A DNA stretch of 62,278 nt. Source: a virus. Lineage: Duplodnaviria > Caudoviricetes. Shown here piece after piece: positions 4,947 through 20,017 of the stretch (within the stretch, counting starts at the first letter, position 1; each line of letters starts with the position of its first letter). The notes beneath the pieces were generated by a model. That model was not told where the DNA came from. It worked only from the letters and a program-made list of their open reading frames with translations, and did not search any database. The translations under genes and the position numbers were made by a program. The stretch lies in the IMG/VR virus record IMGVR_UViG_3300049893_000311, positions 1 to 62,278 of that record. One strand, 5' to 3'.

Positions 4947-5711
4947 TTAGTAACTCTCGTATGCTACATCATAGCACTTTGAGTCAATCCTGTCAAGTAG
5001 TTCCTGAGCAGGACTTGTTTCTAACCCATCAAGTACCATACTACCATTCCAATCGCGTACTGTCAAGTCGGGTTCATTGAATGGGGTCAGATAGGTGGCA
5101 TCAGTCGGCTCACCGCCCCATTTCTTACGGAAGTAGCCCCTGTGGGCTTCGAACCTCTCAGTAGTCACGTTGGGATTATACTTATCAAACTTTTGGGTCA
5201 TAGATCCCTCATGAATAACATCAATGTCTGTTCTGACGTATCCCTTAACACCGGCAAGGATCATCCTTCGGTGCATATCATTGTCCTCAAAGTAAGCGGG
5301 GTAGAAGTTCTGATCGAACCACCCGGCCTGCTCTGTGACCTGTGGAATATCGATAAAGAAACAGAAAAAGTCTGCACCTTCACGGAGCCCCTCATTCTCA
5401 AACATGTGCTGACGTAGTGGTAGCCTTACCTGATTAGGAGACACGACTCCGGCACCAGTCTCGACAATTGTCTTGTAGAGTTCCTCGATTGCGCCGGGTG
5501 GATACTTAAGATCATCATTAGAAATAAGTGCCCATCTATAACCCAAGTCCCTGGCCCTTCTCATGCCCTCGTTCCAGGCTCCCGACACGCCGCGATTATT
5601 GCGCCATGCATCTATAACGATTGGCCTAATGGCTGTGTCAACAGTTTCAATTGTTTCGGTAAACATATCAAACCGGTTAAGACAGGGGATGATGAATGGA
5701 ATACCGATCAT
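4947..5711 (-). CDS. Glycosyltransferase family 2
   Basis: N.GVSGAWN.G, SNDD (DxD-like), FD.NFYPAYFEDND; ATGA overlap at 5711. Confidence 0.85.
   Translation of the reverse strand: MIGIPFIIPCLNRFDMFTETIETVDTAIRPIVIDAWRNNRGVSGAWNEGMRRARDLGYRWALISNDDLKYPPGAIEELYKTIVETGAGVVSPNQVRLPLRQHMFENEGLREGADFFCFFIDIPQVTEQAGWFDQNFYPAYFEDNDMHRRMILAGVKGYVRTDIDVIHEGSMTQKFDKYNPNVTTERFEAHRGYFRKKWGGEPTDATYLTPFNEPDLTVRDWNGSMVLDGLETSPAQELLDRIDSKCYDVAYESY
4968..5066 (-). promoter_or_regulatory. Tandem promoters (TTGACA-17-TAGTAT 5038-5066; TTGACA-17-TATGAT 4968-4996) for tRNA block
   Basis: Two consensus matches within the 3' end of the glycosyltransferase gene. Confidence 0.7.
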
Positions 5712-6718
5712 ATTGTCAACCACTCCGGGTGGTCTAGTGTCCACTCGACAGTCCTCTGCAGAGATTCCTCTAGGGGCAGTGGGGCTTTCCAGCCTGTTGC
5801 CTCGATGTTATCACAATTAAGTGCATATCTTAGATCGTGTCCTGGCCTAGAACTGTGGAAGTCTACAATCTCATAGTGTAGAGGATTGCCAATGAACTCT
5901 GCAATAAGTGTTGCTAGTTCCAGGTTGTCTACCTCTCGCTCACCGGCGATGTGCAGGCGTAGTGGAGTCTCAGCCTCGCCGTACTTCGGGAATGGCAGGG
6001 AGGCGACGTGCATTAGCCCGTCAGCCTGGTTCCTGGCGTGTAGGTAAAAGCGTGAACCGATACGCCCATCTAGCGAGCCGTGAATCTGTACCAATTCCTC
6101 ATTCAAGATACGCTTAATCACCATAGGAACAAACTTCTCGGGATCCTGCGTCTCACCAATAATGTTCATGGTGTTAGTGATAGCCAGCGGAAGTCCGTAG
6201 GTTCTCCAATAAGAAAACGCAATATCTTCCTGTGCAGCCTTGGAAGCGGAGTACGGATTGCTCGGTAGGTGTTGGTCCTGCCACTCACGGTGGGCGTACC
6301 CATCAGGGGCTGGCCCATAAACCTCATCAGTAGAAATTTGAATGAACTTCTCAATATCAGAGTTACGAGCCCAATCCAAAATGTGTACCATCAAGGATAC
6401 GTTATTGATAATGAACGGTGCCGGTTCCTCGATGCTTCTGTCAACGTGTGACTCACTGGCAACGTTGAACACATAATCGATCTTGCCGAACTCTCTGGCC
6501 GTCAGCGTAGAGATAGGCGAGGTGAAGTCACACCTGATAACCTTGGTGCGGGCATAATCTTCATCAACCTCACGAACGGCGTGACGAATTCTATCCTGCA
6601 GCCCCTTGTGAGTGAAGGTGGTTGGGCATACAATGTCCCAATCAGTATTAACTAGAAAGTGGCGAAGCACATGGCTGCCAACAAAACCGGAAGCACCGGT
6701 CAGCAAAACCCTTTTCAT
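5708..6718 (-). CDS. rmlB: dTDP-glucose 4,6-dehydratase
   Basis: GASGFVG, ASESHVDRSI, STDEVYG, YSASK, RPGHDLRY. Confidence 0.9.
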   Translation of the reverse strand: MKRVLLTGASGFVGSHVLRHFLVNTDWDIVCPTTFTHKGLQDRIRHAVREVDEDYARTKVIRCDFTSPISTLTAREFGKIDYVFNVASESHVDRSIEEPAPFIINNVSLMVHILDWARNSDIEKFIQISTDEVYGPAPDGYAHREWQDQHLPSNPYSASKAAQEDIAFSYWRTYGLPLAITNTMNIIGETQDPEKFVPMVIKRILNEELVQIHGSLDGRIGSRFYLHARNQADGLMHVASLPFPKYGEAETPLRLHIAGEREVDNLELATLIAEFIGNPLHYEIVDFHSSRPGHDLRYALNCDNIEATGWKAPLPLEESLQRTVEWTLDHPEWLTI

Positions 6719-6733
6719 CTGTCTCCTGTCGTC

Positions 6734-7429
6734 CTATCCATTATACCCTATCGGAACAATTGGGGCAACAGCATTTTGCTGACCTAGTTCTATGGTATCC
6801 TGGTGCAGTCCGCTGAATGGGACCGAATATCTATCTGCTATATCACTAATCTTATATCCACTAGCAGTCATATTATCGAGAAAGTGTACCTGATTCCACT
6901 CTACCCCCGAGTAGTTGTGCGCCGGGGCGATAAGCAGTGGAGAACCATGATGCTTAACCATCAACCTTGCTGCCTCGCCACTCAGAAGCCCTACGCTATG
7001 TGCAGCGTGAGGCTGTCCATGAGTATCCAGAATCTTCGGACATACATATGCTACCCCATCAGTCATCCTTTCATAAAATATGTCTATAAAATTATCTACT
7101 GCGGGAACATAATCATCTTCCATCAGAAAATAATCCGTTTCATTACCGGCCCTGACGCTGGCATCTATAGCACTATTCCATCCTCCGTAAGAGAAATCTT
7201 GATTATTTCTTATAATAACAGATAGGTCAGTATAGTATGGTTTATAAGGCTGAACCTCTCTGGCAAAATTTACTATATCATCCTTAGAGTCTGCGTTTAA
7301 GACTAGAACTACCCTGTCTAAGGGAGCGTTTGCGTTACTCAGAAAATCTAGATGATCTCTGACGTGGCACGCAGGTCCAGCGGAGCGTCTCTCCCCCATA
7401 TAGAAAACACTTATATAGGTAACGCTCAA
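6734..7429 (-). CDS. Putative GT-A fold glycosyltransferase
   Basis: R.N...SYGGW and FLMEDDY motifs; context. Confidence 0.5.
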   Translation of the reverse strand: MSVTYISVFYMGERRSAGPACHVRDHLDFLSNANAPLDRVVLVLNADSKDDIVNFAREVQPYKPYYTDLSVIIRNNQDFSYGGWNSAIDASVRAGNETDYFLMEDDYVPAVDNFIDIFYERMTDGVAYVCPKILDTHGQPHAAHSVGLLSGEAARLMVKHHGSPLLIAPAHNYSGVEWNQVHFLDNMTASGYKISDIADRYSVPFSGLHQDTIELGQQNAVAPIVPIGYNG

Positions 7430-8502
7430 CGATATCTCCGAATGCTCTCAATGATAAAATCTGTATCATCATTAGTTAGCCACCAACCACATGGAACATT
7501 TGTTTGGTGTGTAGAGAAGTAGTCCAGTCCTGGCAAGGTTCTAGTATCAAACTCTTTCGTGACACTGTACTTATCATTTCTAGTGTGTACCTGTGCTGCC
7601 TGGATTCCATTGGCATTAAGGTATCTCTCAAAGTCGTCACGATCTATACCGTTATTCACCACAAGTGGGAAGATCCAGTATGAGGTGTCCTCGTAGTAGG
7701 GCGGTACGAACAGCCAATCCAAATCCTTTAAGGCTTCGTACATATGCTTGGCGTTGTTCCTGTGAACGTGAACTCCCATTGCTGCAGATCGCATATTAGC
7801 CAATGCGATAGTTGCGCTGATATCATTCATATTGTACTTATAGCCGATGGTGTTGATATCCTGCATCGACCGGAAACTTTCATTATTATCTCTGTCTAGA
7901 CCATACCAGCGCTTCATACGGGCAAGCCTGTGAGTTTCTTCCGGAGTTACCAGGAGTCCGCCGTCGCCTGCCGTCAGGAACTTAATAGCCTGTAGGCTAT
8001 AAGCAATATAGTCTCCACGAGGCATGTTGTGATCGTATGTGTCCCAGGTGTGGGCGGCATCCTCAATTACTGTGGGTGCTAGCAGTTTGAGAGCATCATA
8101 CTCAGCGAACTGACCAGCCCAATTTACTCCGACAATCGCCTTAGTCTTATCAGTGGCAATTCTTTCAACATCAAATACGCTAATGTTTCCGGTGAATGGG
8201 TAAACATCTGCCCACACAATCTTAGCGCCGCGTCGCATAAGCCCTGCGTTAGTAGCATAGCAGGTCATGGGGGTAGAGATAACCTCGTCACCTGGCTCGA
8301 TTCCGGCCAGGTCGAATGCTAGATCAAGTGCTGACGTAGCAGAGTTGACAGCAACAGGCTCACGAGGAAGATTAAGATACTGATGGGATACGGCCTCTAG
8401 TTCGTCCACCCTCGGGCCCTGCGTGACGAAGCCTGAGGAGAGTGTCTCTGCAACCTTCTCGTTGGCGACCGGTGACATATTTACTTTGAACAGTGGGATC
8501 AT
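7426..8502 (-). CDS. DegT/DnrJ/EryC1/StrS PLP-dependent sugar aminotransferase
   Basis: VNSATSAL, IEDAAH, SLQAIK.L..GDGG, GYKYNMND; leaderless start after TATAAT. Confidence 0.9.
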   Translation of the reverse strand: MIPLFKVNMSPVANEKVAETLSSGFVTQGPRVDELEAVSHQYLNLPREPVAVNSATSALDLAFDLAGIEPGDEVISTPMTCYATNAGLMRRGAKIVWADVYPFTGNISVFDVERIATDKTKAIVGVNWAGQFAEYDALKLLAPTVIEDAAHTWDTYDHNMPRGDYIAYSLQAIKFLTAGDGGLLVTPEETHRLARMKRWYGLDRDNNESFRSMQDINTIGYKYNMNDISATIALANMRSAAMGVHVHRNNAKHMYEALKDLDWLFVPPYYEDTSYWIFPLVVNNGIDRDDFERYLNANGIQAAQVHTRNDKYSVTKEFDTRTLPGLDYFSTHQTNVPCGWWLTNDDTDFIIESIRRYR

Positions 8503-8508
8503 AGTAAC

Positions 8509-8537
8509 ATTATACCAACTCTGTGTCGGTCGGTCCA
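8509..8537 (-). promoter_or_regulatory. Promoter TGGACC-17-TATAAT, leaderless
   Basis: ATG 6 nt after -10. Confidence 0.6.
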
Positions 8538-9238
8538 TCGTCAATTACAACGAAATGATTTGACCTCTGCCCCAATTGATCTGAAAAGACGCCCTTATAC
8601 TGCACAACCATTTCGTTGAATGGGCATGGACCGAAGGCTTCGAACATTTGTGAGTATACCTCAGCGTCTAATGCTGCTGTCTGAGGTGCCGGGAACTTTA
8701 TGCCAGCCTCTTTCCAGTCCTTGATTCGCCAGGATACCTGGCTTGCATCTACCCTGCAGTATGGATCAATTGGCCAAGTGTGGGCGTTTAGAAATGTTCC
8801 ATAGTCGAACGGCATATTATCTATTGACGGATATGTAGTGGGGTCATAGACGCTAACGTGCCCATAACTATACTTGACATCTTGATTGGCAGTGTAATAT
8901 CTGTCCAGACCATTTATATATCCGGGTACCAGGGCGTCGTCGTCACAAAGCATGATTCCTAAATCTGCGTCTGTGTCCTCTATCGCCTTGTTCCAGAAGG
9001 AACCAAATCTGCTCCCTCCCTGAGCCAACTTCTGCTCTACGGAATCGTTAGTGTTATAAAGAGTAACGTCGCCAATTGTCCAGACATATTGATCTATTAC
9101 ATCTCTGAGTGGCTTGGTGGAACCATCATCCACAATCGCCAGGTGGTAGTCTGCATCCCCCTGAGCACAGATAGAGTCTAGCGCCAGTTTGACCATTTCA
9201 GGTCGCTCATAGTATGCCATTAGAATAAGTGTCTTCAA
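8510..9238 (-). CDS. Glycosyltransferase family 2
   Basis: AYYERP, VDDGST, LCDDD motifs. Confidence 0.85.
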   Translation of the reverse strand: MKTLILMAYYERPEMVKLALDSICAQGDADYHLAIVDDGSTKPLRDVIDQYVWTIGDVTLYNTNDSVEQKLAQGGSRFGSFWNKAIEDTDADLGIMLCDDDALVPGYINGLDRYYTANQDVKYSYGHVSVYDPTTYPSIDNMPFDYGTFLNAHTWPIDPYCRVDASQVSWRIKDWKEAGIKFPAPQTAALDAEVYSQMFEAFGPCPFNEMVVQYKGVFSDQLGQRSNHFVVIDDGPTDTELV

Positions 9239-10077
9239 TGATTTATTCGCTCCAATATTTCTGGATTATGCCTATATCTTTCGAGAATGGCCGCTCTTGT
9301 TGGCTCCACCCACTCAAACAAAGACTCGTCCCGGCCTATTGGAATATCATGCGCCAAGGACCACTGAAAGTCTACATCTGGTCTTCTAGAGTCCTGACAC
9401 TCCACCCGATCAAGTACGCCTTTATTCATCTTGACCTCGAACTCCTCTTTAGAAAGAGTAATGTAGTGGTATAGTTTTAACTTGTTCATTGTATAATCGT
9501 CGGGAGAAAATGCTCCATATATTGCATTGTGGTTTTCTGTCACAGAAAAAAGACCTGGCTGGTACAGGAAGTTATGTGGGTGACCGGCGTGTTGGAGGGC
9601 TAGGTGCGGTTGGAAAATAGTCTTTATATGATACATGGGATCCTTAGCAGCATCGAAATAGTTCTCCATCAACAACCCCTCCGGACGATAGATGTGTCCA
9701 GAGGAGTTTATTAGTTGCCATGCTACACTAACTCCCCCATAGTTCTCGTATTCTGACAGCATCTCTGGCAGACTTTTCCCTGTCGGACTAATCAAGCGTT
9801 CATCAATAGCATGATAGTGTAGCCACCTGGTCTTGAATGCTTGCTCCTGAATGCAGTAATCCATCACCCAACTGTTCTTGCTTATGTTTAATCCATCAGG
9901 ATAAGTTCGTAACTCTACCAGGTCTCCGTATGGCTCTAAAATTTCCCTGGTCCCATCCGTGGAGCCATTGTCGTAGAAGATAAAATGGTCGAACCCCTGC
10001 ATGAGATGAAACTCTAGATATTCTGGAAGATATCTCCCTTCATTTTTTATCCAATAAATTCCAGTTAGGTTATACAT
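9235..10077 (-). CDS. Glycosyltransferase family 92-like
   Basis: KNE.RYL.E.LEFH...GFDHF.FYDNGSTD; IDE; HY.T.S.EEF..K. Confidence 0.8.
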   Translation of the reverse strand: MYNLTGIYWIKNEGRYLPEYLEFHLMQGFDHFIFYDNGSTDGTREILEPYGDLVELRTYPDGLNISKNSWVMDYCIQEQAFKTRWLHYHAIDERLISPTGKSLPEMLSEYENYGGVSVAWQLINSSGHIYRPEGLLMENYFDAAKDPMYHIKTIFQPHLALQHAGHPHNFLYQPGLFSVTENHNAIYGAFSPDDYTMNKLKLYHYITLSKEEFEVKMNKGVLDRVECQDSRRPDVDFQWSLAHDIPIGRDESLFEWVEPTRAAILERYRHNPEILERINH

Positions 10078-10513
10078 TTATATACTCCAATGGGTAGTCT
10101 GTACAGATTCCTAAGAGGTTGTCGGTCGGCTCCCACAATTCTGGTAATACAGAGATGCTGTTTTCCAGCGGTGGTGCCGATGGGTGGGTCCATACCACCC
10201 CGTTACTTACCAGGGTGTACGAATCTGTGATATGGAAAAAATACCTCAAATCCTTAAGGAACGAGTTAGAAACCTTTTCTAGCGCAGTGCCGTTCTTGCA
10301 GTGGATCCAAAGGTTGTCTCTGTAGTGGTGCAGCCATTCTGCAGACACCTCGTACTGCAACTCATCGTGTCCTAAATAGAAGCAGCCATTAACCCACCAC
10401 AGGTCTACCTCTACATCAAGCCCTAGGTGAATCACGCTCTGTATCTGCTTGGGTGAATTCTCGGAATTTGGGTCGGGCCCGTACAGGTTGCCCCGGTGAG
10501 AAATAATTACCAC
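10070..10513 (-). CDS. GDPD/PLC-like phosphodiesterase-fold protein
   Basis: ISHRGN, DVEVD, LGHD, WIHCKN, GICTDY. Confidence 0.75.
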   Translation of the reverse strand: MVIISHRGNLYGPDPNSENSPKQIQSVIHLGLDVEVDLWWVNGCFYLGHDELQYEVSAEWLHHYRDNLWIHCKNGTALEKVSNSFLKDLRYFFHITDSYTLVSNGVVWTHPSAPPLENSISVLPELWEPTDNLLGICTDYPLEYINV

Positions 10514-11880
10514 CGATCCTCCTTTAAAAATTCTTCCAGATCTTCTGGTGTGCCGAGACCATGCATATCATCAACATCGAACGTCTTAAACTTTAAACCG
10601 CCCTGTATTCCCTCATTAAATGCCGGACAGACATAAAACTCATTATTAGTTCTAATGTTTTTATCAATCATCTGCTTGGCAGAGGCAACGTAGTCGCTAC
10701 CGCGCTTCCAGTAATAAATACCGACAGTCGCATTATGCGAAATAGGATTTTTTTCGGCTACTCTTTCAACGTATCCATCCTCCCCAACCTTAGCGAACGA
10801 CCACTTGGGGTGAGTGGACTTGAATGTCACTATTCCCCCGTCTGTAGCCGACTCCTGCATAAAGTAGAAGAAGTCTGAGGGCGACCACTCTACATACTGG
10901 TCCGAGTTTGCCAGTAGAAGCGGGCTCTCGTTGTCTATAAACTCTGACGCTAACAGAGTGGTAACTGCTGCGCCCTCCGTCAGACCATCAGTTTCCACGA
11001 TTTTGACCTGACCAGGCGTGATAAGTTGTAGCATTGTGTCAAGATTGTACTTCTGCCGATGTTCTGATCTAACAATGTAAATAAATGTCGCGTCCTGTAT
11101 TCCAAGATTTTCAACAACCACCTGAATCATTGGTTTTCCCCTGACAGAAATCAGAGGCTTAGGAAAAGTATATCCGGCACTCTCAAATCTAGATCCGGCT
11201 CCGGCCATAGGAATAACTACGTTCAGGCTTGACTGTGACCATGAAGAATTCATTTTACCATTATACCCTCCGATTCTAGATTCCACAAACTCTTTTGTCA
11301 CCTCTAGCGGGTCGGAGATTCTTAATGTGTTTGCTCCGGAGAGCGTGGCAGCCCTTAGTCCGACCGGAGAGTCTTCTAGGATCAATGTTTCTTCTGGAAG
11401 AACCCCATAAAGAGACATAACCTTCCAGTACATTTCCGGGTGTGGCTTAGAATTTTTCACATCTTCGTTAGAGACAATGATATCAAAATATTCTTTTATA
11501 CCCAATCTCTCTAGCACGAGGGCCGTAGTGGATCTGATGGAGTTGGAGCAACAGGCAATCTTGACCCCTCTTGCTGTCAACGACCTCATAAGATCTACGA
11601 GAATGTGATTTACGCCAACAGACCTATTTATCACCTCGGCTGTAAACTCCTGCTTTCTTTTCCAGATAGAATCATGGGCTCCTCGTGGGAGTCCACGCTT
11701 TTCTGACAGCATGTTTAACTTCTCGGTAGTCTTTAATCCGTCAAAGACGGACAGGTGCTCTTTCTCGGAGATAACATACTGTGCCCCCTGCTCTTTAAGG
11801 GCTTCGTTCAGGGCGTGAAAATGAATATCTTTAGTAGATACAAGAACTCCATCAAGGTCGAACGCTATAAGTTTTATCAT
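10507..11880 (-). CDS. HAD hydrolase / sugar nucleotidyltransferase fusion
   Basis: N-term FDLDG...SNS...KP.P...EDS; C-term PMAGAGSRF..AGY..PKPL, NSDQ, GLGTPEDL. Confidence 0.9.
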   Translation of the reverse strand: MIKLIAFDLDGVLVSTKDIHFHALNEALKEQGAQYVISEKEHLSVFDGLKTTEKLNMLSEKRGLPRGAHDSIWKRKQEFTAEVINRSVGVNHILVDLMRSLTARGVKIACCSNSIRSTTALVLERLGIKEYFDIIVSNEDVKNSKPHPEMYWKVMSLYGVLPEETLILEDSPVGLRAATLSGANTLRISDPLEVTKEFVESRIGGYNGKMNSSWSQSSLNVVIPMAGAGSRFESAGYTFPKPLISVRGKPMIQVVVENLGIQDATFIYIVRSEHRQKYNLDTMLQLITPGQVKIVETDGLTEGAAVTTLLASEFIDNESPLLLANSDQYVEWSPSDFFYFMQESATDGGIVTFKSTHPKWSFAKVGEDGYVERVAEKNPISHNATVGIYYWKRGSDYVASAKQMIDKNIRTNNEFYVCPAFNEGIQGGLKFKTFDVDDMHGLGTPEDLEEFLKEDRW

Positions 11881-11890
11881 CTATACAACC

Positions 11891-12343
11891 TTATACCGTA
11901 CGCCTAACCATAGAGACTACGCCATTATGCTCAGCAGTCTCGACAAATCCGAGTGATCGATAGAGATTGATTGCCTTATTATTAGTAGAAAGAACGTCCA
12001 ATTCTGGTACGAACTGGTCATCATTAGTCAGATCAATTAGAGTCTGGAACAGTTTTTTCCCATGACCCTGCCCCTGATACTCTTCCAGAATTGCGCCGGT
12101 TAAGAGAGCAGCCGAAGCATCCTGCCTGTTAATAATACCATAGCCAATCGCCTTGCCTTGACTAAAATAAAGAAACAGTCTCAACCTTTCATGGTCGAGA
12201 CTGCTATACCACTCTATCTGCTCACTCTCTGTAATCATTTTGGTGTTATTAGTCATAAATTGACGAACACTATTACGAATCAGGCGGGCCGCTTCAAGTT
12301 CTCGCTCTAGGTTTGGCCTATCAGGAGTAATTTCTACCAGCAT
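11891..12343 (-). CDS. GNAT N-acetyltransferase (PseH-like)
   Basis: RN..RQFM...I...EQ..W; QGQGHG; N.KAINLY.SLGF. Confidence 0.85.
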   Translation of the reverse strand: MLVEITPDRPNLERELEAARLIRNSVRQFMTNNTKMITESEQIEWYSSLDHERLRLFLYFSQGKAIGYGIINRQDASAALLTGAILEEYQGQGHGKKLFQTLIDLTNDDQFVPELDVLSTNNKAINLYRSLGFVETAEHNGVVSMVRRTV

Positions 12344-12344
12344 A

Positions 12345-12626
12345 TTAGAATGTTTCTGTGTTTACTGTTACCGTGTGTCCATCGTCATGATTGATGGTAT
12401 ATGTGTATGGGTCCGCCTTGGTAATGGTGCCGTGGGAGACTATAGGATTCTGCCAGTACGGAGTATAATCACCGGCACCATAAGTCGTCTCAACAACTGT
12501 TTCCTTGACTAAATTACCCTTACCATCATATTCTCTGGTAGTGGTAATTGTCTTAGTAGTACGCGGGTAGTTGTACTGTCCGTAATCGACTACATTCGTT
12601 GGCGGGCCAATCGGATTAATCATCAT
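12345..12626 (-). CDS. Hypothetical protein (start uncertain)
   Basis: ORF directly downstream of tRNA-Ala. Confidence 0.6.
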   Translation of the reverse strand: MMINPIGPPTNVVDYGQYNYPRTTKTITTTREYDGKGNLVKETVVETTYGAGDYTPYWQNPIVSHGTITKADPYTYTINHDDGHTVTVNTETF

Positions 12627-12627
12627 G

Positions 12628-12700
12628 TGGAGCATTAGGGAGTCGAACCCTATCCTATTCCTTGCAAAAGAATCGTGCCATCCCTTAACACCTATGCCCC
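12628..12700 (-). tRNA. tRNA-Ala(TGC)
   Basis: G3:U70 pair; ATTCT-TTTGCAA-GGAAT. Confidence 0.95.
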
Positions 12701-12705
12701 TCTAT

Positions 12706-12776
12706 ACGAGGTGTTCTTTTTTGAACTACCGGAGTCTCGACTTCCAGGCAATGAATTTCACATTGCGTTTCCTCGT
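12706..12776 (-). ncRNA. Circularly permuted tRNA-like module (YrlA-type topology)
   Basis: ACGAGG-AAAC-[GCAATG-TGAAATT-CATTGC]-[CTGGA..TCCGG]-TA-[GTTC-AAAAAA-GAAC]-A-CCTCGT. Confidence 0.65.
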
Positions 12777-12849
12777 GGCTTCGGGTCAGAGGGTCGAACT
12801 CCGATTCGTAGATTCAAAGTCTACTGTCCTGCCATTAGACGAACCCGAA
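12776..12849 (-). tRNA. tRNA-Gln(TTG)
   Basis: TTCGGGT/ACCCGAA-G-CCA; GTAGA-CTTTGAA-TCTAC. Confidence 0.95.
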
Positions 12850-13266
12850 TTAAATTAATTCTTTGCAATTACCCTTCCATGTTCTGATGCGGTGGCAGTT
12901 GCTACACACAACATCACACTTAGAAATTTCCTTTTCGATCTTTTCTACGCTTCCGAGGTTAATCATCTTTGCAATTGTGAACTCTTTATCCGCCGGGTCT
13001 CGGTGATCAAAGTCCATAACATAGAATGGATATTTGACTCCACAATCCATACATGGAACGTCTCTAGCCACTCTAGTAACTTTTCTTAGAGCATCTTGAC
13101 TCGCCTTGTTTCTAGTATACAGTCTTTCTCGCTCCTTGTCAACCGAGTTGTAGTATTCCTTATACCACATCTTTTGACACTCACGACACTTAGACTGATA
13201 CTTGTCCCTTTTCCGATTGAACTGGTCTACCGGCTTTGAAACACCACACGAATTGCAAGTTTTCAT
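12850..13266 (-). CDS. HNH endonuclease with N-terminal Zn finger (leaderless start MKTCNSCG)
   Basis: CxxC pairs, MDFDH...CDVVCSNCHRIR. Confidence 0.85.
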   Translation of the reverse strand: MKTCNSCGVSKPVDQFNRKRDKYQSKCRECQKMWYKEYYNSVDKERERLYTRNKASQDALRKVTRVARDVPCMDCGVKYPFYVMDFDHRDPADKEFTIAKMINLGSVEKIEKEISKCDVVCSNCHRIRTWKGNCKELI

Positions 13267-13272
13267 ACCATG

Positions 13273-13301
13273 ATTATACATGGATTCGAACCCTATGTCA
13301 A
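13273..13301 (-). promoter_or_regulatory. Perfect consensus promoter TTGACA-17-TATAAT, leaderless
   Basis: ATG 6 nt after -10. Confidence 0.85.
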
Positions 13302-13311
13302 GTTCGAGGGG

Positions 13312-13385
13312 CTCGGCGGGGAAGGATCGAACTTCCGACTTCAAGATTCAGAGTCTTGCTGCATATGCCAACAATGCGCCGCCGA
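13312..13385 (-). tRNA. tRNA-Gln(CTG)
   Basis: TCGGCGG/CCGCCGA-G; CAAGA-CTCTGAA-TCTTG. Confidence 0.9.
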
Positions 13386-13397
13386 ATAACTATTATT

Positions 13398-13426
13398 AGT
13401 TTAGCACACTATATAAAGCGTGTCAA
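13398..13426 (-). promoter_or_regulatory. Promoter TTGACA-17-TAAACT
   Basis: Consensus match upstream of tRNA-Gln(CTG). Confidence 0.75.
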
Positions 13427-13429
13427 CTT

Positions 13430-13504
13430 TGGTGCATCCGGACGGTGCTGCCCCGCCGACATTCGCGTTTAGAGTGCGACGTTCTACTGTTGAACTACGG
13501 ATGC
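13430..13504 (-). tRNA. Amber-anticodon tRNA(CTA) #1, full cloverleaf
   Basis: GCATCCG/CGGATGC-A-CCA; TCGCA-CTCTAAA-CGCGA; T-loop GGCAGCA. Confidence 0.85.
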
Positions 13505-13505
13505 T

Positions 13506-13657
13506 TGGTGGGCATATGCGTTACTAGCGCAACCTAGCAGATCAAGGAAACGGACTACCTATAGGATATCCTTCCGCAGCCTGGGCCTTGGATATAGGCG
13601 TTTATCGTGTGCTGTCACTACTAGAGGAAGGCGTTACTAGCAATACCTTCGCTGCCC
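13506..13657 (-). ncRNA. 152-nt ACCA-ended RNA with two CU-AGU-AA loops
   Basis: GGGCA/TGCCC-ACCA; GAAGGT..G-CTAGTAA-C-GCCTTC; CTAGTAG/CTGCTAG; TGCG-CTAGTAA-CGCA; fills the space between two tRNAs. Confidence 0.75.
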
Positions 13658-13658
13658 G

Positions 13659-13725
13659 AGCCCCGGAGGGGAATTGAACCCCAAGTCTGGCTTTTAGAGA
13701 GCCGTCTTGCGCCTGCGTCCGAGGC
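13659..13725 (-). tRNA. Amber-anticodon tRNA(CTA) #2, 67 nt with reduced D-arm
   Basis: GCCTCGG/CCGGGGC-T; GGCT-CTCTAAA-AGCC; GGGG-TTCAATT-CCCC. Confidence 0.7.
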
Positions 13726-13728
13726 AGA

Positions 13729-13756
13729 TGAGCAGTTTTAGTCATGCTCAGGACTA
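13729..13756 (-). other. Compact H-type pseudoknot upstream of tRNA(CTA) #2
   Basis: TAGTC/GACTA stem; loop TGAGCA pairs TGCTCA. Confidence 0.65.
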
Positions 13757-13790
13757 GGGATAAAAGATTTTATCCTCCACCACTTAGTTG

Positions 13791-13820
13791 TTACTAAGTC
13801 TATGTCTAGGTCTATGTCAC
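13791..13820 (-). CDS. Minigene GTG-ACA-TAG-ACC-TAG-ACA-TAG-ACT-TAG-TAA (M-T-X-T-X-T-X-T-X if amber is read)
   Basis: SD AGGGGGTG 7 nt upstream; repeat varies only at the Thr wobble position; ends in TAA. Confidence 0.65.
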
Positions 13821-13861
13821 GACTCACCACCCCCTATAAGAGATTGGCGTTTCGCCTTAAC

Positions 13862-14416
13862 CTATGGGTCTAGAAAATCCCCATCTAGAACAGTTTTCAT
13901 TGCCGCCTCGCGTGGAATCATACCCAAGTAACACATCCAACAGTGCCACGGACCTGAGTGTGGACATTCCTTAGGACGCAACTGGTAGACTGCCGGAGCA
14001 GTTGCAGGCTGCGGTCCAGATCCACAGTCAGGACATTCCTCACCAATAAGCAGGATGCGTCCAGACATACAGGTATCGCAAACATCTAGACGCCCAGCAC
14101 GCTTTTCAGCGCGGCGCTTAAACGTGCTCTGACGGCGCTGTGGAAGCGTGCCGTCCTTGTAAGGAACCATATCACCCTTAAGTTGGTTACACTTGCGATG
14201 CATCAACTTTAGATTATCAAGATCCCACGTTCCGCCATTAGAAAGCGGATTCCAGTGGTCTAGGGTAACGGCCCACCTGTTGTTCTCATCTTCGTAATCG
14301 ATAGAAAAGTCTAGTGGCTCCCCACACTCCGGGTGCATACAAAAATCGCCGTCCCTCTCACGAAGGAATGCGATTCGCTCTTCTCTCGATGGAGCGCGAG
14401 TCTCCACGGTTATCAC
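13862..14416 (-). CDS. HNH endonuclease with C-terminal Cys/His clusters (start 14416 or 14407; in-frame ATG-ACT-TAG at 14440)
   Basis: RDG..C...CG, TLDH..PLS.GG...DNL...H..CN..K. Confidence 0.85.
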   Translation of the reverse strand: MITVETRAPSREERIAFLRERDGDFCMHPECGEPLDFSIDYEDENNRWAVTLDHWNPLSNGGTWDLDNLKLMHRKCNQLKGDMVPYKDGTLPQRRQSTFKRRAEKRAGRLDVCDTCMSGRILLIGEECPDCGSGPQPATAPAVYQLRPKECPHSGPWHCWMCYLGMIPREAAMKTVLDGDFLDP

Positions 14417-14444
14417 CTTTTCGCTAGTGTTCTAAGTCATGGGT

Positions 14445-14651
14445 CTATTGTAGCACATCACCGGTCAGTAGGTCAAGTTGGCCCACAATTGGGGCGTAGG
14501 CACAGTCATCGTCAACGTCTGGACGATTATAGTCACTGACCTCACCACAGTATTTACACGTCAAATAATCTACCTCGTCTGGATCTAAGTTGTCCAGATC
14601 GTCCAGGTCCATGCCTGGAAAGATCGCCCTATCGTGCCATGCGTGCTTCAC
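14445..14651 (-). CDS. Hypothetical acidic protein with CxxC
   Basis: GTGA overlap with upstream stop. Confidence 0.6.
   Translation of the reverse strand: MKHAWHDRAIFPGMDLDDLDNLDPDEVDYLTCKYCGEVSDYNRPDVDDDCAYAPIVGQLDLLTGDVLQ
14447..14476 (-). promoter_or_regulatory. Promoter TTGACC-18-TACAAT; ATG-ACT-TAG at predicted +1
   Basis: TGn extended -10; ATG 6 nt downstream like other leaderless genes here. Confidence 0.7.
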
Positions 14652-14881
14652 CAGAAATCATACCCTTCGAATACTTCCCCCATCGCTGATACGGGGAAAC
14701 CTGATTTTGTGTAGTTGCACCAGCCAGAGTGCTTGCGCTTCTCAAAGCAGTACAGTGTCCTGCCAATCCACTCTATCTTGTCTGCACACCGGCCATGCCA
14801 GTCCTGTAGGTGAGCCATGTACTCCTGCTCTGTGAACCTTTCGTGGTCGATATTGCAGTTCTGATTGAACCGCTCTATCAT
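14648..14881 (-). CDS. Hypothetical protein (Cys/His-rich)
   Basis: AGGAGG SD. Confidence 0.7.
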   Translation of the reverse strand: MIERFNQNCNIDHERFTEQEYMAHLQDWHGRCADKIEWIGRTLYCFEKRKHSGWCNYTKSGFPVSAMGEVFEGYDFW

Positions 14882-14889
14882 CGTACCTC

Positions 14890-16677
14890 CTAGATCAGTC
14901 TCATGCGATCAAGGTAATCCTCGATCTCAGGGGGCATCCTCTTAGGTGCCTGAATCACACCCTCATCATACTCCCTCTTGTCCAAGTTGTCAATAGTAGT
15001 TAGATCACGAGGTTCGTAGATCTCAATGACCGGGTTAAGATCCTTCGGGGTCAAAGAAATTGCATTGAATATAGCACCACAGGTGGCGTCAGCCAAGTCC
15101 TTACTGCCTTGCCTTGGGTGGTCAACCTTGTCCTTATTGATCCTTAGTTTCAGAAGTTCCCTGATGAGGATGGGAAGGTGCGGTCCCTTTACCCTGTCCT
15201 CATAAACGGCCAGTGCCATATCCTCGTAATGCTTTTTAGCAACCGATAGAGTCTCAGACTTCAAACCATATTCACGGAGTTGCTGCATCATATCGTGGCT
15301 GTTCCAGCGGTCGAAGGTGACCATTCGGATATCGAAGCCGAGCCTCTTAAGGTTCAGAATGTAGTCCTTAACCTCTGTGAAATCAACCGATTTGTCTGAC
15401 GAAGGTGTCCAGTAACGTACCGCGTCAACAATAACATACGGAGCAATGATATTTGTCTGCCCCATGATCCTCTGATTCTTCCAGTGGTCAACGTGGGCCA
15501 TAGCAACAGCACAACGGTCATGCTTCTGAGCCAGGTCAACGTGAAGGTAGTAGGCCTTGTCATGCTCCGGCTTAAACCAGTCAGCGAACGATCCATGCTC
15601 TGTAATGGCAATGTTCATTTCTCGGAAAGCCTTCTCTACCTTTTCCTTAGACTTGAAGAATGCGTCGATGGCCTCGGGAGGCATGCACGCAAATCGAGAC
15701 AGAGCATCTACCGAGTCAGTGAGGAATGCGTTTTTCAGGTCGTCCAGGTTGATCAGTGGGTTAACCTCCCACGTTGGGCGCTTCATTGCGAACACCTTTG
15801 GGTACTTGTAGGAGATAATTCTATCCTCTTCCCACTCGATTGTGAACTCGTTATCTGGTAGCCCGCCCGGAAGTGACTCATCAATTTGGAAGGTGTAAGT
15901 TTGGATGACCGTTTCCTTGTCTGCAATAACTTCGTTGTACCTTTGCTGGATGAAGTCCTCTTTATATCGGGGGAAGGATAGCAGCAGAACCTTGCCGAAT
16001 TGCGGGAATCGTGAGTCTACGGAGCCCCTATACATCTTGTAGATGGCGTCAGCGGTCTTAGCGTTCTCGTTTCCAGACATATTCTCGATTGCGAAACCTG
16101 AAATCTCGTCAAGGATGACCAGGATAACGTTGTATCCCTCCCAGGACTCTCGCTCAGAGTGGCCGGAGTGTACGGTCACGTTCTTGATAAATGATACCGC
16201 GTCGGCCTTCTGTGTGTATTTACCTGCGAACCAGGGTGACTTTTCAATCCTGTTCTTGAAGCCCTTGAAGAAAACGTTGCGAGCCTGCTGGCTGTTAATA
16301 GCAATGTTCAGAATGTCAATGGAGTCGCCAGGTGGCTTTCCATAGTACCGCGCCGGGTCTTTTAAGCAGAGCAACAGATAAACGATATAAGCACACGCAA
16401 TTGTCGATGTATAGTCTTTCCCCGAACCCTTCCCCAACTGCATGATGATCTCGGTATATGTCTGCTTCCACCGCCTGTTTCCTTCCTCCGGGCCATAAAG
16501 GTTGATCAGCGTGTCATACTTATAAATCTGTGATGACGCCTCAATGATCTTATACTGATTCTCAGACAGCGGTGGAAGCCCCAAATACTTGTCAGAGGTA
16601 ACGAATTCCTTGACCGGAACCGGCCTTTCATCGAACTCGTCACCACTAAGAATATCTAGAAAGTCAGTCAGACTCAA
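14890..16677 (-). CDS. terL: Terminase large subunit
   Basis: Walker A GKGSGKD, Walker B VILDE, nuclease HVDLA, FDRWNS, KVDHP..GSKDLADA. Confidence 0.9.
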   Translation of the reverse strand: MSLTDFLDILSGDEFDERPVPVKEFVTSDKYLGLPPLSENQYKIIEASSQIYKYDTLINLYGPEEGNRRWKQTYTEIIMQLGKGSGKDYTSTIACAYIVYLLLCLKDPARYYGKPPGDSIDILNIAINSQQARNVFFKGFKNRIEKSPWFAGKYTQKADAVSFIKNVTVHSGHSERESWEGYNVILVILDEISGFAIENMSGNENAKTADAIYKMYRGSVDSRFPQFGKVLLLSFPRYKEDFIQQRYNEVIADKETVIQTYTFQIDESLPGGLPDNEFTIEWEEDRIISYKYPKVFAMKRPTWEVNPLINLDDLKNAFLTDSVDALSRFACMPPEAIDAFFKSKEKVEKAFREMNIAITEHGSFADWFKPEHDKAYYLHVDLAQKHDRCAVAMAHVDHWKNQRIMGQTNIIAPYVIVDAVRYWTPSSDKSVDFTEVKDYILNLKRLGFDIRMVTFDRWNSHDMMQQLREYGLKSETLSVAKKHYEDMALAVYEDRVKGPHLPILIRELLKLRINKDKVDHPRQGSKDLADATCGAIFNAISLTPKDLNPVIEIYEPRDLTTIDNLDKREYDEGVIQAPKRMPPEIEDYLDRMRLI

Positions 16678-18379: not shown

Positions 18380-18945
18380 CGTGTCATCTCCTCGTAGGCG
18401 TAGAACGCCACTCCAATAGCGTCAGCCACATCGTTGTCATCATTGATGATATCATACTCGTCATTGAAATAGTCTATCGTGTACTGCTTCCTAAGCCTAC
18501 GAATTTCTTCCTTTATCCAAGAGTCGGACTTTCCAGGGTTGTTTGCCTTAAGTTCGGCCTTCTCCGCTTTAGTCCAATTCTTATTTCCAATATACGACTG
18601 CCAACTGATTGGCGGAACCTCTACAACAGTGGTGTGGTCCCTAAGCACCGACGCGATTACGACACCTAGGGCCATGCCCATCTTGATTGCTGTACCGACG
18701 CCAGAGCGGGCCATGATAGCCTTTTCTACAGCGATGTAGTCAACCTCAAACTGGTCGCTCAGCGCCAGCAACTTAGCCTGCGAGTCAGCCAGTCTATCGT
18801 AGGCAGAGTTTCCATCGAAGAAAATCTTACCATACTTTATTAAGTGCCCATCCTGAATAATAGCAAAGGCAAGGCTATGGGTGGACGAATCTATCCCCAT
18901 AACCGTAGTCTGCTTCTCTTTGACCAGTGTAGATATTATTCCCAC
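18376..18945 (-). CDS. ruvC: RuvC-like Holliday junction resolvase
   Basis: GIDSS, AVEK, DNDVADAIG acidic motifs. Confidence 0.8.
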   Translation of the reverse strand: MGIISTLVKEKQTTVMGIDSSTHSLAFAIIQDGHLIKYGKIFFDGNSAYDRLADSQAKLLALSDQFEVDYIAVEKAIMARSGVGTAIKMGMALGVVIASVLRDHTTVVEVPPISWQSYIGNKNWTKAEKAELKANNPGKSDSWIKEEIRRLRKQYTIDYFNDEYDIINDDNDVADAIGVAFYAYEEMTR

Positions 18946-19232
18946 ACAATCACCGCTATCTGATTCATGAGAAGCGTCTTTCCGTCCTCGACAGTCCTTG
19001 CTTCACAGGCTGAACACACCTTGCCAAGATTATACTTGGACAGGGTGGCCGAGCATTCCTTGCACCGCCTGGGCGCACCTGATCGCAGACGCTTGTTCTC
19101 ATAATATCTGTCCATGATTTTGCGGTTAGTCGCCTCCCGGCAACACTTATCAGAACAGTATTTTTGATTGTGAGTTTTCTTTTTAAAGGTATTCTCGCAA
19201 CCATCATTAGCGCAGATGTTGCTATACTCCAC
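18936..19232 (-). CDS. Cys-rich Zn-binding protein
   Basis: Multiple CxxC, KYCS..C. Confidence 0.75.
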   Translation of the reverse strand: MEYSNICANDGCENTFKKKTHNQKYCSDKCCREATNRKIMDRYYENKRLRSGAPRRCKECSATLSKYNLGKVCSACEARTVEDGKTLLMNQIAVIVWE

Positions 19233-20017
19233 TAAGGCTTAGGCACCTCCAATACCGGCAACTCTACTACACCAGGCCCGAATTCTTCGAAGCAGGCCTT
19301 CTGCACAGGGCAGCCTTGACACACCTTAGCGTTCTTCCTTGTCCACGGACGTACAGGCAACTGGCCATCTTTGTATGCGTCGAAAGTATTTTCCATCCAC
19401 TCAAAGAGGTAGTTGACGATTTCCTTGTTCCGCTCGCTTACCACGATTGGAATGACCAGGATCTCCTGCGTGTCCTTGTTCTCATAAAGAAGAAATCCCT
19501 CGCGGGATTTTGTAAGTTTTAGGTAAATTAGAAACTGGACGAAGTGGCTATCGGAAGGCTTCCCCGTATTTGTCCTAAACTGGAAACTGTTACTGTTCGC
19601 AGTCTTGACCTCTACAGGGAGATCCATTTCCTTCCAGTCGATGATAGCATCAATAAACCCTCTGATTGGAGGGTATTCGTTCGTTACTTCTAATTCCTTG
19701 TGCTTTAGCACACCCATAGTCTCTAGGTTGGCCTGAATTCGCTCGTGCGAATACGAACCATTGTCCATGTTGGCCAGCGACTTCGAATCGAACGTGTCAT
19801 CGAAGTGGGCTCCGGTGAAGGCTATGAACCAATACCGAGGGCACGTCCCGTGCCCATACCCTAGGGTAGATGGTGAAAATGACTTCTTCCTCTTGAATCC
19901 AGACCTGTTTCCAGCATCGACATAGGACTTCTCATATGCCTTAATGAACTCTTGGGGATCAAATTCGCCAGGCCCCTGACGCTGCATCATGCCAATAATG
20001 CTCTTCTCTTTGGCCAT
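19232..20017 (-). CDS. Cas4-like PD-(D/E)xK exonuclease
   Basis: CPRY, G...HE, GFID, EVKT, Q..IY, C..CP....C. Confidence 0.85.
   Translation of the reverse strand: MAKEKSIIGMMQRQGPGEFDPQEFIKAYEKSYVDAGNRSGFKRKKSFSPSTLGYGHGTCPRYWFIAFTGAHFDDTFDSKSLANMDNGSYSHERIQANLETMGVLKHKELEVTNEYPPIRGFIDAIIDWKEMDLPVEVKTANSNSFQFRTNTGKPSDSHFVQFLIYLKLTKSREGFLLYENKDTQEILVIPIVVSERNKEIVNYLFEWMENTFDAYKDGQLPVRPWTRKNAKVCQGCPVQKACFEEFGPGVVELPVLEVPKP

Follow-up and report, generated by a model that had tools for sequence, protein, structure and literature searches.

A conserved mini-ORF of tandem UAG codons beside candidate amber suppressor tRNA genes in uncultured actinophage-like viruses

The leader-peptide attenuators of the trp, his, thr and leu operons place a short open reading frame (ORF), with its own Shine-Dalgarno sequence (SD) and start codon, 5' of the genes they regulate and carry the sensed codon in tandem copies. 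The autoregulation of prfB (release factor 2) relies on a single in-frame UGA and a +1 frameshift inside the regulated gene itself, while minigenes of the lambda bar type consist of a strong SD and start, one or two sense codons and a stop. The locus described here lies in the IMG/VR virus record IMGVR_UViG_3300049893_000311 (62,278 bases, analysed over its whole length and called the window below). Its central element is a mini-ORF of ten codons, GTG(ACN TAG)x4 TAA, and its order is a UAG-terminated HNH gene, the mini-ORF, then one or two transfer RNA (tRNA) genes with a CUA anticodon. This module is real, conserved and unusual, and its carriers are a small clade of uncultured actinophage-like viruses. 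Our preferred reading, held tentatively and rated somewhat short of probable, is that the mini-ORF is a cis-acting leader tied to the phage's own CUA tRNAs, a test track of UAG codons read by the ribosome.

As in the amino-acid-operon attenuators, the codon that would be sensed is repeated in tandem and the downstream genes would supply the capacity to decode it. However, this codon is a stop, the downstream genes encode tRNAs and not biosynthetic enzymes, no terminator/antiterminator pair was found, and entry seems to be gated by read-through of a UAG further upstream. The resemblance to attenuator leaders proposed in a preliminary description of this DNA therefore holds in part. There is an ORF with SD and start upstream of the tRNAs, with which it is probably co-transcribed, and three or four tandem TAGs stand beside CUA loops in all six loci that carry the element. 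Mutually exclusive structures were not found: neither a terminator nor a helix sequestering the SD of a regulated gene is seen, and the one SD with a predicted sequestering partner is that of the mini-ORF itself. With neither a terminator nor an antiterminator found, the element falls outside the attenuator family as defined. With prfB it shares an early in-frame stop that would gauge release factor against alternative decoding, in cis to a gene of termination or decoding; it differs in having tandem UAGs, in being a separate mini-ORF beside tRNA genes and in implying no frameshift. Minigenes of the bar type, in contrast, have no stop-codon repeats, no second type of stop to close them and no linkage to suppressor tRNAs.

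The nearest engineered counterpart is a synthetic Uaa transcriptional switch (PMC6412442), in which transcription is governed by a tna/trp-type leader peptide with a TAG inserted upstream. That switch has one TAG and a known output, the unmasking of a rut site, whereas the phage element is natural, has three or four tandem TAGs and stands in front of the very genes that encode the suppressor tRNAs. Code change modules with suppressor tRNAs have been described in stop-codon-recoded phages, together with standard-code phages that acquired a suppressor, in the text of bioRxiv 10.1101/2021.08.26.457843, where neither leader nor minigene appears as a word. Theta ribozymes adjoin phage suppressor tRNAs (PMC10879173) and are a different kind of cis element from the mini-ORF. 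The likeness is that phage CUA tRNAs, often non-canonical and missed by tRNA finders, have cis elements beside them with a possible control over tRNA maturation. Unlike the recoded-phage modules, the present one stands in 62 kb without an in-frame TAG and matches no ribozyme family. A full-text literature search, with subscription journals outside its coverage, found no stop-codon-repeat leader ORF beside suppressor tRNA genes.

The mini-ORF and the elements around it are the following.

13835-13828, minus strand: SD AGGGGGTG, 8 nt, followed by a 7-nt spacer, GTGAGTC, before the GTG
13820-13791, minus strand: mini-ORF GTG ACA TAG ACC TAG ACA TAG ACT TAG TAA, 10 codons, start GTG at 13820-13818 and TAA at 13793-13791
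13799-13782, minus strand: hairpin 1, ACTTAGT-AACA-ACTAAGT, enclosing the last TAG and the TAA
13775-13758, minus strand: hairpin 2, GGATAAAA-TC-TTTTATCC, seen in the window alone and lacking a T run after it

The preliminary description had reported this ten-codon minigene, its SD 7 nt upstream, two hairpins of which one overlaps the end of the frame, and CUA tRNAs downstream, and it is accurate on each of these points. Tandem Repeats Finder reports a period of 6 and 4.2 copies at 13794-13818. The window has a single match to the pattern RTG(NNNTAG)3 and 100 dinucleotide shuffles have none, while the 12-mer ACNTAGACNTAG by itself is not rare (4 matches vs 3.67 expected). The duplex energy of the SD is -16.1 kcal/mol, a strength reached or exceeded in only 2 of the 60 window genes and in 0.18% of 1678 background windows; in the homologs it ranges from -17.0 to -22.1 kcal/mol. 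The six mini-ORFs together contain 20 UAGs. All 14 that precede another unit have A at +4, and the remaining 6 directly precede the closing TAA. Of the 10 genuine TAG stops at the ends of window genes, 2 are followed by A at +4. A at +4 is reported as a context that favours amber suppression in PMC6266110, which also cites a selection study (its ref. 39) on extended context preferences around UAG.

Several other interpretations of the repeat were set aside. The 35-nt core (13834-13800, from the SD through the third TAG) is single-copy in the 62 kb, so it is no reiterated promoter or operator; the motif TAGACNTAGAC with at most one mismatch gives 6 matches against 3.67 expected. A weak promoter-like sequence, GTAACA-16-TAAAAT at 13794-13767, is not kept in the homologs (by eye). 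The frame with AGA codons (CAT AGA CCT AGA...) begins with TGA and has no start codon. Quadruplet UAGA decoding was rejected by reasoning only, as one such event would break the frame of the repeat. ARAGORN and Rfam place no tmRNA, T-box, ribozyme or other Rfam family over the mini-ORF, and in 13400-13900 Rfam at E up to 10 returns only tRNA-class hits and one chance CRISPR-DR hit. The heptamer TAGTAAC, present at the end of the mini-ORF, has five copies on the minus strand of the whole window, three of them within 13526-13796.

Relatives were sought in viral and metagenome contigs using the terminase, the HNH protein and DNA patterns. Five further loci bear the element; L009 apparently derives from the same 6,221-nt contig as L108, and L100 comes from the same contig as L096. 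Their mini-ORFs compare with that of the window as follows.

Window: GTG ACA TAG ACC TAG ACA TAG ACT TAG TAA
L100: GTG ACA TAG ACC TAG ACC TAG TAA TAA
L009: GTG ACA TAG ACC TAG ACA TAG TAA
L105: GTG ACA TAG ACC TAG ACA TAG TAA TAA
L106: GTG ACA TAG ACC TAG ACT TAG TAA
L109: GTG ACA TAG ACC TAG ACT TAG AAC TAG TAA TAA

The preliminary description had staked its proposal on homologs keeping the SD and the start. They do: the SD, the 7-nt spacer, the GTG, three or four in-frame TAGs and the closing TAA are kept in 6/6 loci. The TAA directly follows the last TAG in every case and is doubled (TAA TAA) in three of them. Within the core, 31 of 35 positions are invariant among the six sequences, and the flanks on both sides diverge freely. 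The adjacent HNH gene provides a neutral yardstick: only 2 of its 27 comparable 4-fold sites (residue conserved in all six) are invariant, and pairwise identity at such sites is 0.28-0.55, near saturation, for a protein identity of 64-88% between the window and each homolog. To judge from this comparison of sequences, the mini-ORF is not a chance repeat.

The core is rare outside this group. It is absent from 185,579 prokaryote species (one genome each) and from 50,697 cultured-phage records, and among the best 80 terminase relatives it is found in L009 only. Cultured phages have no similarity to 13250-13900, where 12 records give matches that are all of 22-27 nt (E ~0.7). A scan of viral contigs for GGAG-N4-10-RTG-(NNN TAG)3 gave at least 117 stretches; among the matches listed, only the L009 contig is homologous, most looked like repeats coding in another frame, and no independent family appeared. 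ARAGORN finds no CTA tRNA in the listed stretches, and it also misses the CUA tRNAs of the window phage.

The mini-ORF is found together with CUA tRNAs. A CTCTAAA loop with a flanking stem of at least 4 pairs is present in 6/6 mini-ORF loci and in neither of the two HNH loci that lack the mini-ORF (L107 and L110). Both CUA tRNAs are found in the window and L100, only tRNA1 in L009 and L109, and only tRNA2 in L105 and L106: one can be missing, never both. L107 is syntenic (HNH, next ORF, then tRNAs Gln, Gln, Ala, Gly, Pro, Arg, Met, Ser) and is without exactly the mini-ORF and the CUA tRNAs, while L110 is more distantly related (43% identity) and has no more than ~230 nt of flank. Among 79 other terminase relatives, CTCTAAA stem-loops number only four, none tRNA-like by eye and all on the minus strand of loci whose terminase is on the plus strand. 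The tRNA part of the module comprises the following features, with counterparts in the other loci.

13725-13659, minus strand: tRNA1, a non-canonical tRNA-like gene of 67 nt, loop CTCTAAA at 13699-13693, anticodon CTA at 13697-13695
L009 5639-5705 and L109 683-749: counterparts of tRNA1
13658-13505, minus strand: inter-tRNA spacer with a direct repeat, GCTAGTAACGC, at 13641-13631 and 13528-13518
13504-13433, minus strand: tRNA2, 72 nt, followed by an encoded CCA at 13432-13430, loop CTCTAAA at 13474-13468, anticodon CTA at 13472-13470
L100 3273-3344 and L105 910-981: counterparts of tRNA2

Both genes are candidate amber suppressor tRNAs. tRNA1 can be folded with an 8-bp acceptor stem, a 4-bp T stem, a 5-bp anticodon stem and no D stem, the latter being replaced by a connector of ~12-13 nt of which the 12-nt GCAGGCGCAAGA is invariant. 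In this 8/4 fold 98% of 51 cells are paired in three sequences, and both partners have changed in 5 of 17 pairs; controls in which the partner was slid by 1-3 columns give 33-59% paired. The anticodon stems of tRNA1 covary around an invariant loop (CGGCT/AGCCA, AGATC/GATCT, GGATC/GATCT, ACCGT/ACGGT). In the L100 counterpart the D arm is normal, and ARAGORN, which called neither CUA tRNA of the window, reports this gene as tRNA-Pyl(cta). tRNA2 matches the Rfam tRNA family RF00005 with 47 bits, for a gathering score of 29. The same 47 bits are obtained in the window, L100 and L105, although HNH 4-fold identity among these is only 0.49-0.55, and the cut copy of L106 scores 29.8 bits. Its anticodon stems also differ around an invariant loop (TCGCA/CGCGA vs GGGCA/CGCCT), the L106 copy shows compensatory changes in the D stem and anticodon stem (by eye), and an A-C mismatch beside the anticodon loop is kept in L106. 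The long spacer is missing in L100, where 6 nt separate the two tRNAs. Attempts to trace the origin or identity of the CUA tRNAs were unconvincing (best scores of 11-13 to tRNA-Arg(TCT), Asn and Lys), and the body of tRNA2 with a free anticodon has no match in prokaryote genomes.

The upstream part of the module links the mini-ORF to the HNH gene.

14476-14447, minus strand: sigma-70-like promoter TTGACC-18-TACAAT with TG, 10/12 matches in a consensus scan, putative function
13862-14416, minus strand: HNH endonuclease gene, 184 aa (amino acids), Pfam HNH PF01844 (E 5.3e-07), TAG stop at 13864-13862
13861-13817, minus strand: HNH read-through frame, 14 open codons, then TGA at 13819-13817 overlapping the GTG as GTGA
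13855-13819, minus strand: predicted imperfect hairpin pairing anti-SD segments (TCTCT, CGCCA) with the SD and part of the GTG

L100 has TTGACA-N17-TATACT at the matching place upstream of HNH (by eye). The HNH stop is TAG in 7/7 homologs whose frame was checked. Beyond it, the frame is open, in phase and closed at the TGA that overlaps the GTG in 5/5 loci where HNH is adjacent, even though the read-through spacer exists in two unrelated versions of 13 or 14 codons (xVKAKRQSLIGGGES and xGKPILPIKGGGQW). L109 has an insertion between HNH and the mini-ORF, a small Cys-rich ORF (333-600, ~100 codons, CxxC and CCC runs) whose native TGA overlaps the GTG of the mini-ORF and whose ATG overlaps a TGA of the HNH read-through frame (by eye). 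The predicted probability that the SD is paired upstream is 0.88 in the window, 0.98-1.00 in L105, L100, L009 and L106, and 0.58 in L109, and the anti-SD differs in L009 and L106 (CCTCCC/GGGAGG). RNAalifold further predicts that the HNH UAGG pairs with the CCUA of unit 2, forming an outer helix around the SD hairpin. In L107, which lacks the module, HNH is followed at ~1630-1660 by TAG AAA GGC AAA TAG ATG, the next ORF being in frame with two UAGs between.

These features suggest how a leader of this kind might work. HNH, the mini-ORF and the CUA tRNAs are probably carried on one transcript, as the promoter-like sites and the lack of terminator-like sites suggest. The strong SD and the GTG would be locked in the hairpin, and the main entry of ribosomes would be via read-through of the HNH UAG. 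Ribosomes that read through would unwind the hairpin, stop at the UGA overlapping the GUG and restart there, a coupling suggested by the arrangement of the frames and the predicted pairing. On the mini-ORF, the ribosome would then meet three or four UAGs, each in the suppression-friendly UAG-A context, and would reach the closing UAA(UAA) only if the phage CUA tRNAs, and not release factor 1, decode every one of them. Such serial decoding would give a steep read-out of UAG-decoding capacity. The travel of the ribosome would alter the folding, processing or stability of the RNA just 5' of the tRNAs, and the fate of this RNA would feed back on suppressor-tRNA supply or on the HNH mRNA, the proposal leaving the sign and target unspecified. 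In its complete form, with a cooperative track of three or four UAGs, entry by HNH read-through and a result that controls suppressor-tRNA supply, this natural stop-codon gauge is a conjecture that we consider rather unlikely to be right in all its parts.

A number of observations weigh against a leader of this type. Thr codons 1 and 2 each keep the same third base in 6/6 loci, a constraint for which a plain leader ORF has no need, and 5 of the 7 bases between SD and GTG are invariant as well, which would fit a protein- or RNA-binding site. The fourth unit of L109 is AAC (Asn) and not ACN. Hairpins 1 and 2 are unconserved in the other five loci and no intrinsic terminator-like site is found in 12400-15000; therefore no classical attenuator output is visible. 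The outer helix and most pairs of the SD hairpin are without covariation (1 of 20 pairs changed on both sides). As for the tRNAs, tRNA1 falls below the Rfam threshold (best tRNA-Sec, 16.5 bits, E 1.7), and tRNA2 is atypical, with a D loop without GG and an abnormal T loop, GGCAGCA. No in-frame TAG that would need suppression was found in the window genes, that is in 62 kb or about half of the genome. Finally, only six loci from one small clade are available, and independent evolutionary events are correspondingly few.

The synonymous argument of the preliminary description does not survive this comparison. Differences between units within one genome, which it took for selection on the decoded sequence, are not evolutionary evidence; variation across homologs is not confined to wobble positions, the fourth unit of L109 being AAC; units 1 and 2 are invariant at the nucleotide level; and the argument is not specific to the TAG frame, as the GAC-NTA frame varies just as conservatively (Ile/Leu, Asp to Glu). 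The fixed wobble bases of units 1 and 2, set against the saturated 4-fold sites of HNH, therefore indicate constraint on nucleotides and not only on amino acids. This nucleotide-level selection may reflect extended UAG context preferences (cf. PMC6266110), a second function or a non-translational function.

The last of these corresponds to the view that the 35-nt core is a sequence-specific RNA or DNA site built of TAGAC repeats, its likeness to an ORF being incidental or secondary. Such a site may be bound by a phage or host protein, or be a nuclease or processing signal for the pre-tRNA transcript. The invariance of 31 of 35 nucleotides, including the wobble bases of units 1 and 2 and most of the spacer, next to saturated neutral sites is what it predicts; the number of units changes by whole repeats as in any tandem site; TAGA and not Thr is the invariant part (TAGAAC in L109); and joint presence or absence with the tRNAs would suit a processing or regulatory signal too. 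It nevertheless leaves unexplained the very strong SD correctly spaced from a GTG, the TAA right after the last TAG in 6/6 loci, the upstream frame that always closes at the GTG-overlapping TGA, and the identity between the repeated triplet and the codon read by the adjacent tRNAs. A period of 6 bp is moreover unusual for protein operators, and the core occurs once in 62 kb without a match to any Rfam family. We regard this explanation as possible but doubtful.

A toxic or sink minigene like lambda bar is improbable. If UAG terminates, GTG ACA TAG has the layout of such minigenes (SD, start, one or two sense codons, stop), and endless initiation on these two codons would tie up peptidyl-tRNA, ribosomes or release factor 1, weakening host translation or giving the phage suppressor tRNAs an advantage in the competition for UAG. 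A very strong SD with its start, the stop after one sense codon, the conservation and the position beside tRNAs that would compete with release factor 1 all suit this proposal. However, it needs neither three or four units nor a closing TAA, neither an occluded SD nor coupling to HNH read-through, and ACA is common in the phage (529 ACA vs 228 ACG in 60 genes), so that sequestering its tRNA would hurt the phage itself. More improbable still is a small protein encoded in the GAC-NTA frame from a GTG GTG inside the SD (VVSRDIDLDIDL...). In all six loci this frame stays open, over a length of 16 to more than 50 codons, and its repeats vary conservatively (Ile/Leu; Asp to Glu in L109), but the C-terminal parts, of 16 to 58 residues, have neither length nor sequence in common, the frame crosses the tRNA in L009, and the G-rich run lies directly against the GTG, too close to act as its SD. 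As for a functionless hexamer repeat born of slippage, the 4.2 copies of period 6 and the variable copy number would agree with it, and yet its retention with SD, GTG and TAA in six loci, despite HNH identities of 64-88% and near-saturated 4-fold sites, makes it scarcely credible.

Hexamer arrays do occur elsewhere. An exact 21-mer scan of viral contigs returned six loci (L003-L008), all of them long (AGACNN)n arrays of tens of units in unrelated low-GC contigs, and these are not homologs. On the opposite strand of L004, an SD and ATG are followed by MATKRTKY and then by (X-Ser)n, where X is R, G, W, M or V (by eye). Such arrays appear to be a widespread low-complexity repeat of phage proteins unrelated to the mini-ORF.

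Close relatives of the segment itself were found among contigs from other samples, the phage being present in freshwater and sediment. Contigs of X2 and X3, two DNA runs of different studies, span 13505-14483 or beyond. Compared with the window, their HNH ORFs carry 18 differences (15 synonymous) and 11 differences (all synonymous), respectively, whereas in 13505-13885 neither shows a single one. Strong constraint would account for this, as would recent mosaic exchange of the segment. In runs X2, X3 and X5, which hold near-identical strains, the contigs that cover 13505 carry unrelated sequence on the low-coordinate side, the break falling exactly at the 5' end of tRNA2; the major variant of those strains therefore lacks tRNA2 at this place, and in X2 the window's own variant at 13505 is a minor form (depth 40 vs 1603). 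X7, a contig of 238 nt and depth 6 from a metatranscriptome library, covers 13510-13739, that is tRNA1 and the spacer, short of the mini-ORF, with DNA carry-over possible.

Two further elements border the tRNA genes.

13750-13729, minus strand: hairpin 3, TGAGCA-(10-nt loop ending TAAAAC)-TGCTCA, directly 5' of tRNA1
13426-13398, minus strand: promoter-like TTGACA-17-TAAACT, serving tRNA-Gln(CTG) at 13386-13309 and marking the end of the module

A separate promoter-like site before tRNA-Gln is also present in L100 and L009. The stem of hairpin 3 varies (GGTC/GACC in L009, GATCC/GGATC in L100, TGAGTA/TGCTCA in L109) while the A run of its loop is kept. In the window, the hairpin TAGTCCTGAGCATGACT..AAAACTGCTC (13729-13756) recurs in four distant terminase relatives, at these positions.

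L042 9191-9221: copy of the hairpin
L045 12318-12348: copy of the hairpin
L066 7057-7091: copy of the hairpin
L068 9298-9328: copy of the hairpin

There it ends a structured leader of ~100 nt located between a TAGTATAAT-like -10 box and the SD and ATG of a protein gene. On the strength of these recurrences in sequence, it is a conserved 5'-leader element in this phage group.

The window has an estimated completeness of 50%, and nearly all of its genes are on the minus strand. In the terminase region, 118 records of cultured phages match it with a nucleotide identity of 60-90%, and 116 of them are Streptomyces phages; phage Wakanda, among these records, is classified in Stanwilliamsviridae. Under code 11 the genes, an ordinary set for a phage (Pol III alpha, DnaB, primase, RecA, tape measure, terminase and a sugar-modification cluster), are intact. 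Minus-strand ORFs gain less length when TAG is treated as a sense codon than when TGA or TAA is, and 10 of the 60 window genes use a TAG stop. Together these results argue that the portion of the phage in the window uses the standard code. Genome-wide recoding of TAG (code 15) is rejected, for the 62 kb seen or about half of the genome, by these ORF-length and intact-gene tests. Minus-strand TAG junctions with two long flanks number only three, and at least two of them separate adjacent genes in the ORF lists (6734-7429 with 5708-6718, and 19232-20017 with 18936-19232). The first concerns a TAG-ended ORF of 231 aa (6734-7429, minus strand) in frame with the next gene, an NAD-dependent epimerase (5708-6718); read-through would give a fusion with the epimerase over 341 codons, which is maybe due to chance. 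The sugar-nucleotide and glycosylation cluster (4947-12343, minus strand) encodes two or three family-2 glycosyltransferases, an epimerase/dehydratase and a DegT-type aminotransferase, as well as a HAD-nucleotidyltransferase fusion and a GNAT acetyltransferase.

Phages with suppressor tRNAs must change the reading of stop codons in a host that uses the standard code, and how they time and bound this change is a question raised in PMC10879173. A conserved mini-ORF made of the tRNAs' own codon and wired to them would be a directly testable control element. It would be the natural counterpart of the engineered amber-leader switches, with possible use in synthetic biology as a compact and steep reporter of amber suppression. 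Both CUA tRNAs are missed by standard finders (an 8/4 fold without D arm in one, a non-TΨC T loop in the other), which bears on estimates of suppressor-carrying phages. If the reading as a stop-codon gauge is true, no natural leader ORF made of stop codons would have been described before this one, and the element would become a candidate for the device that triggers genetic-code switching in phages.

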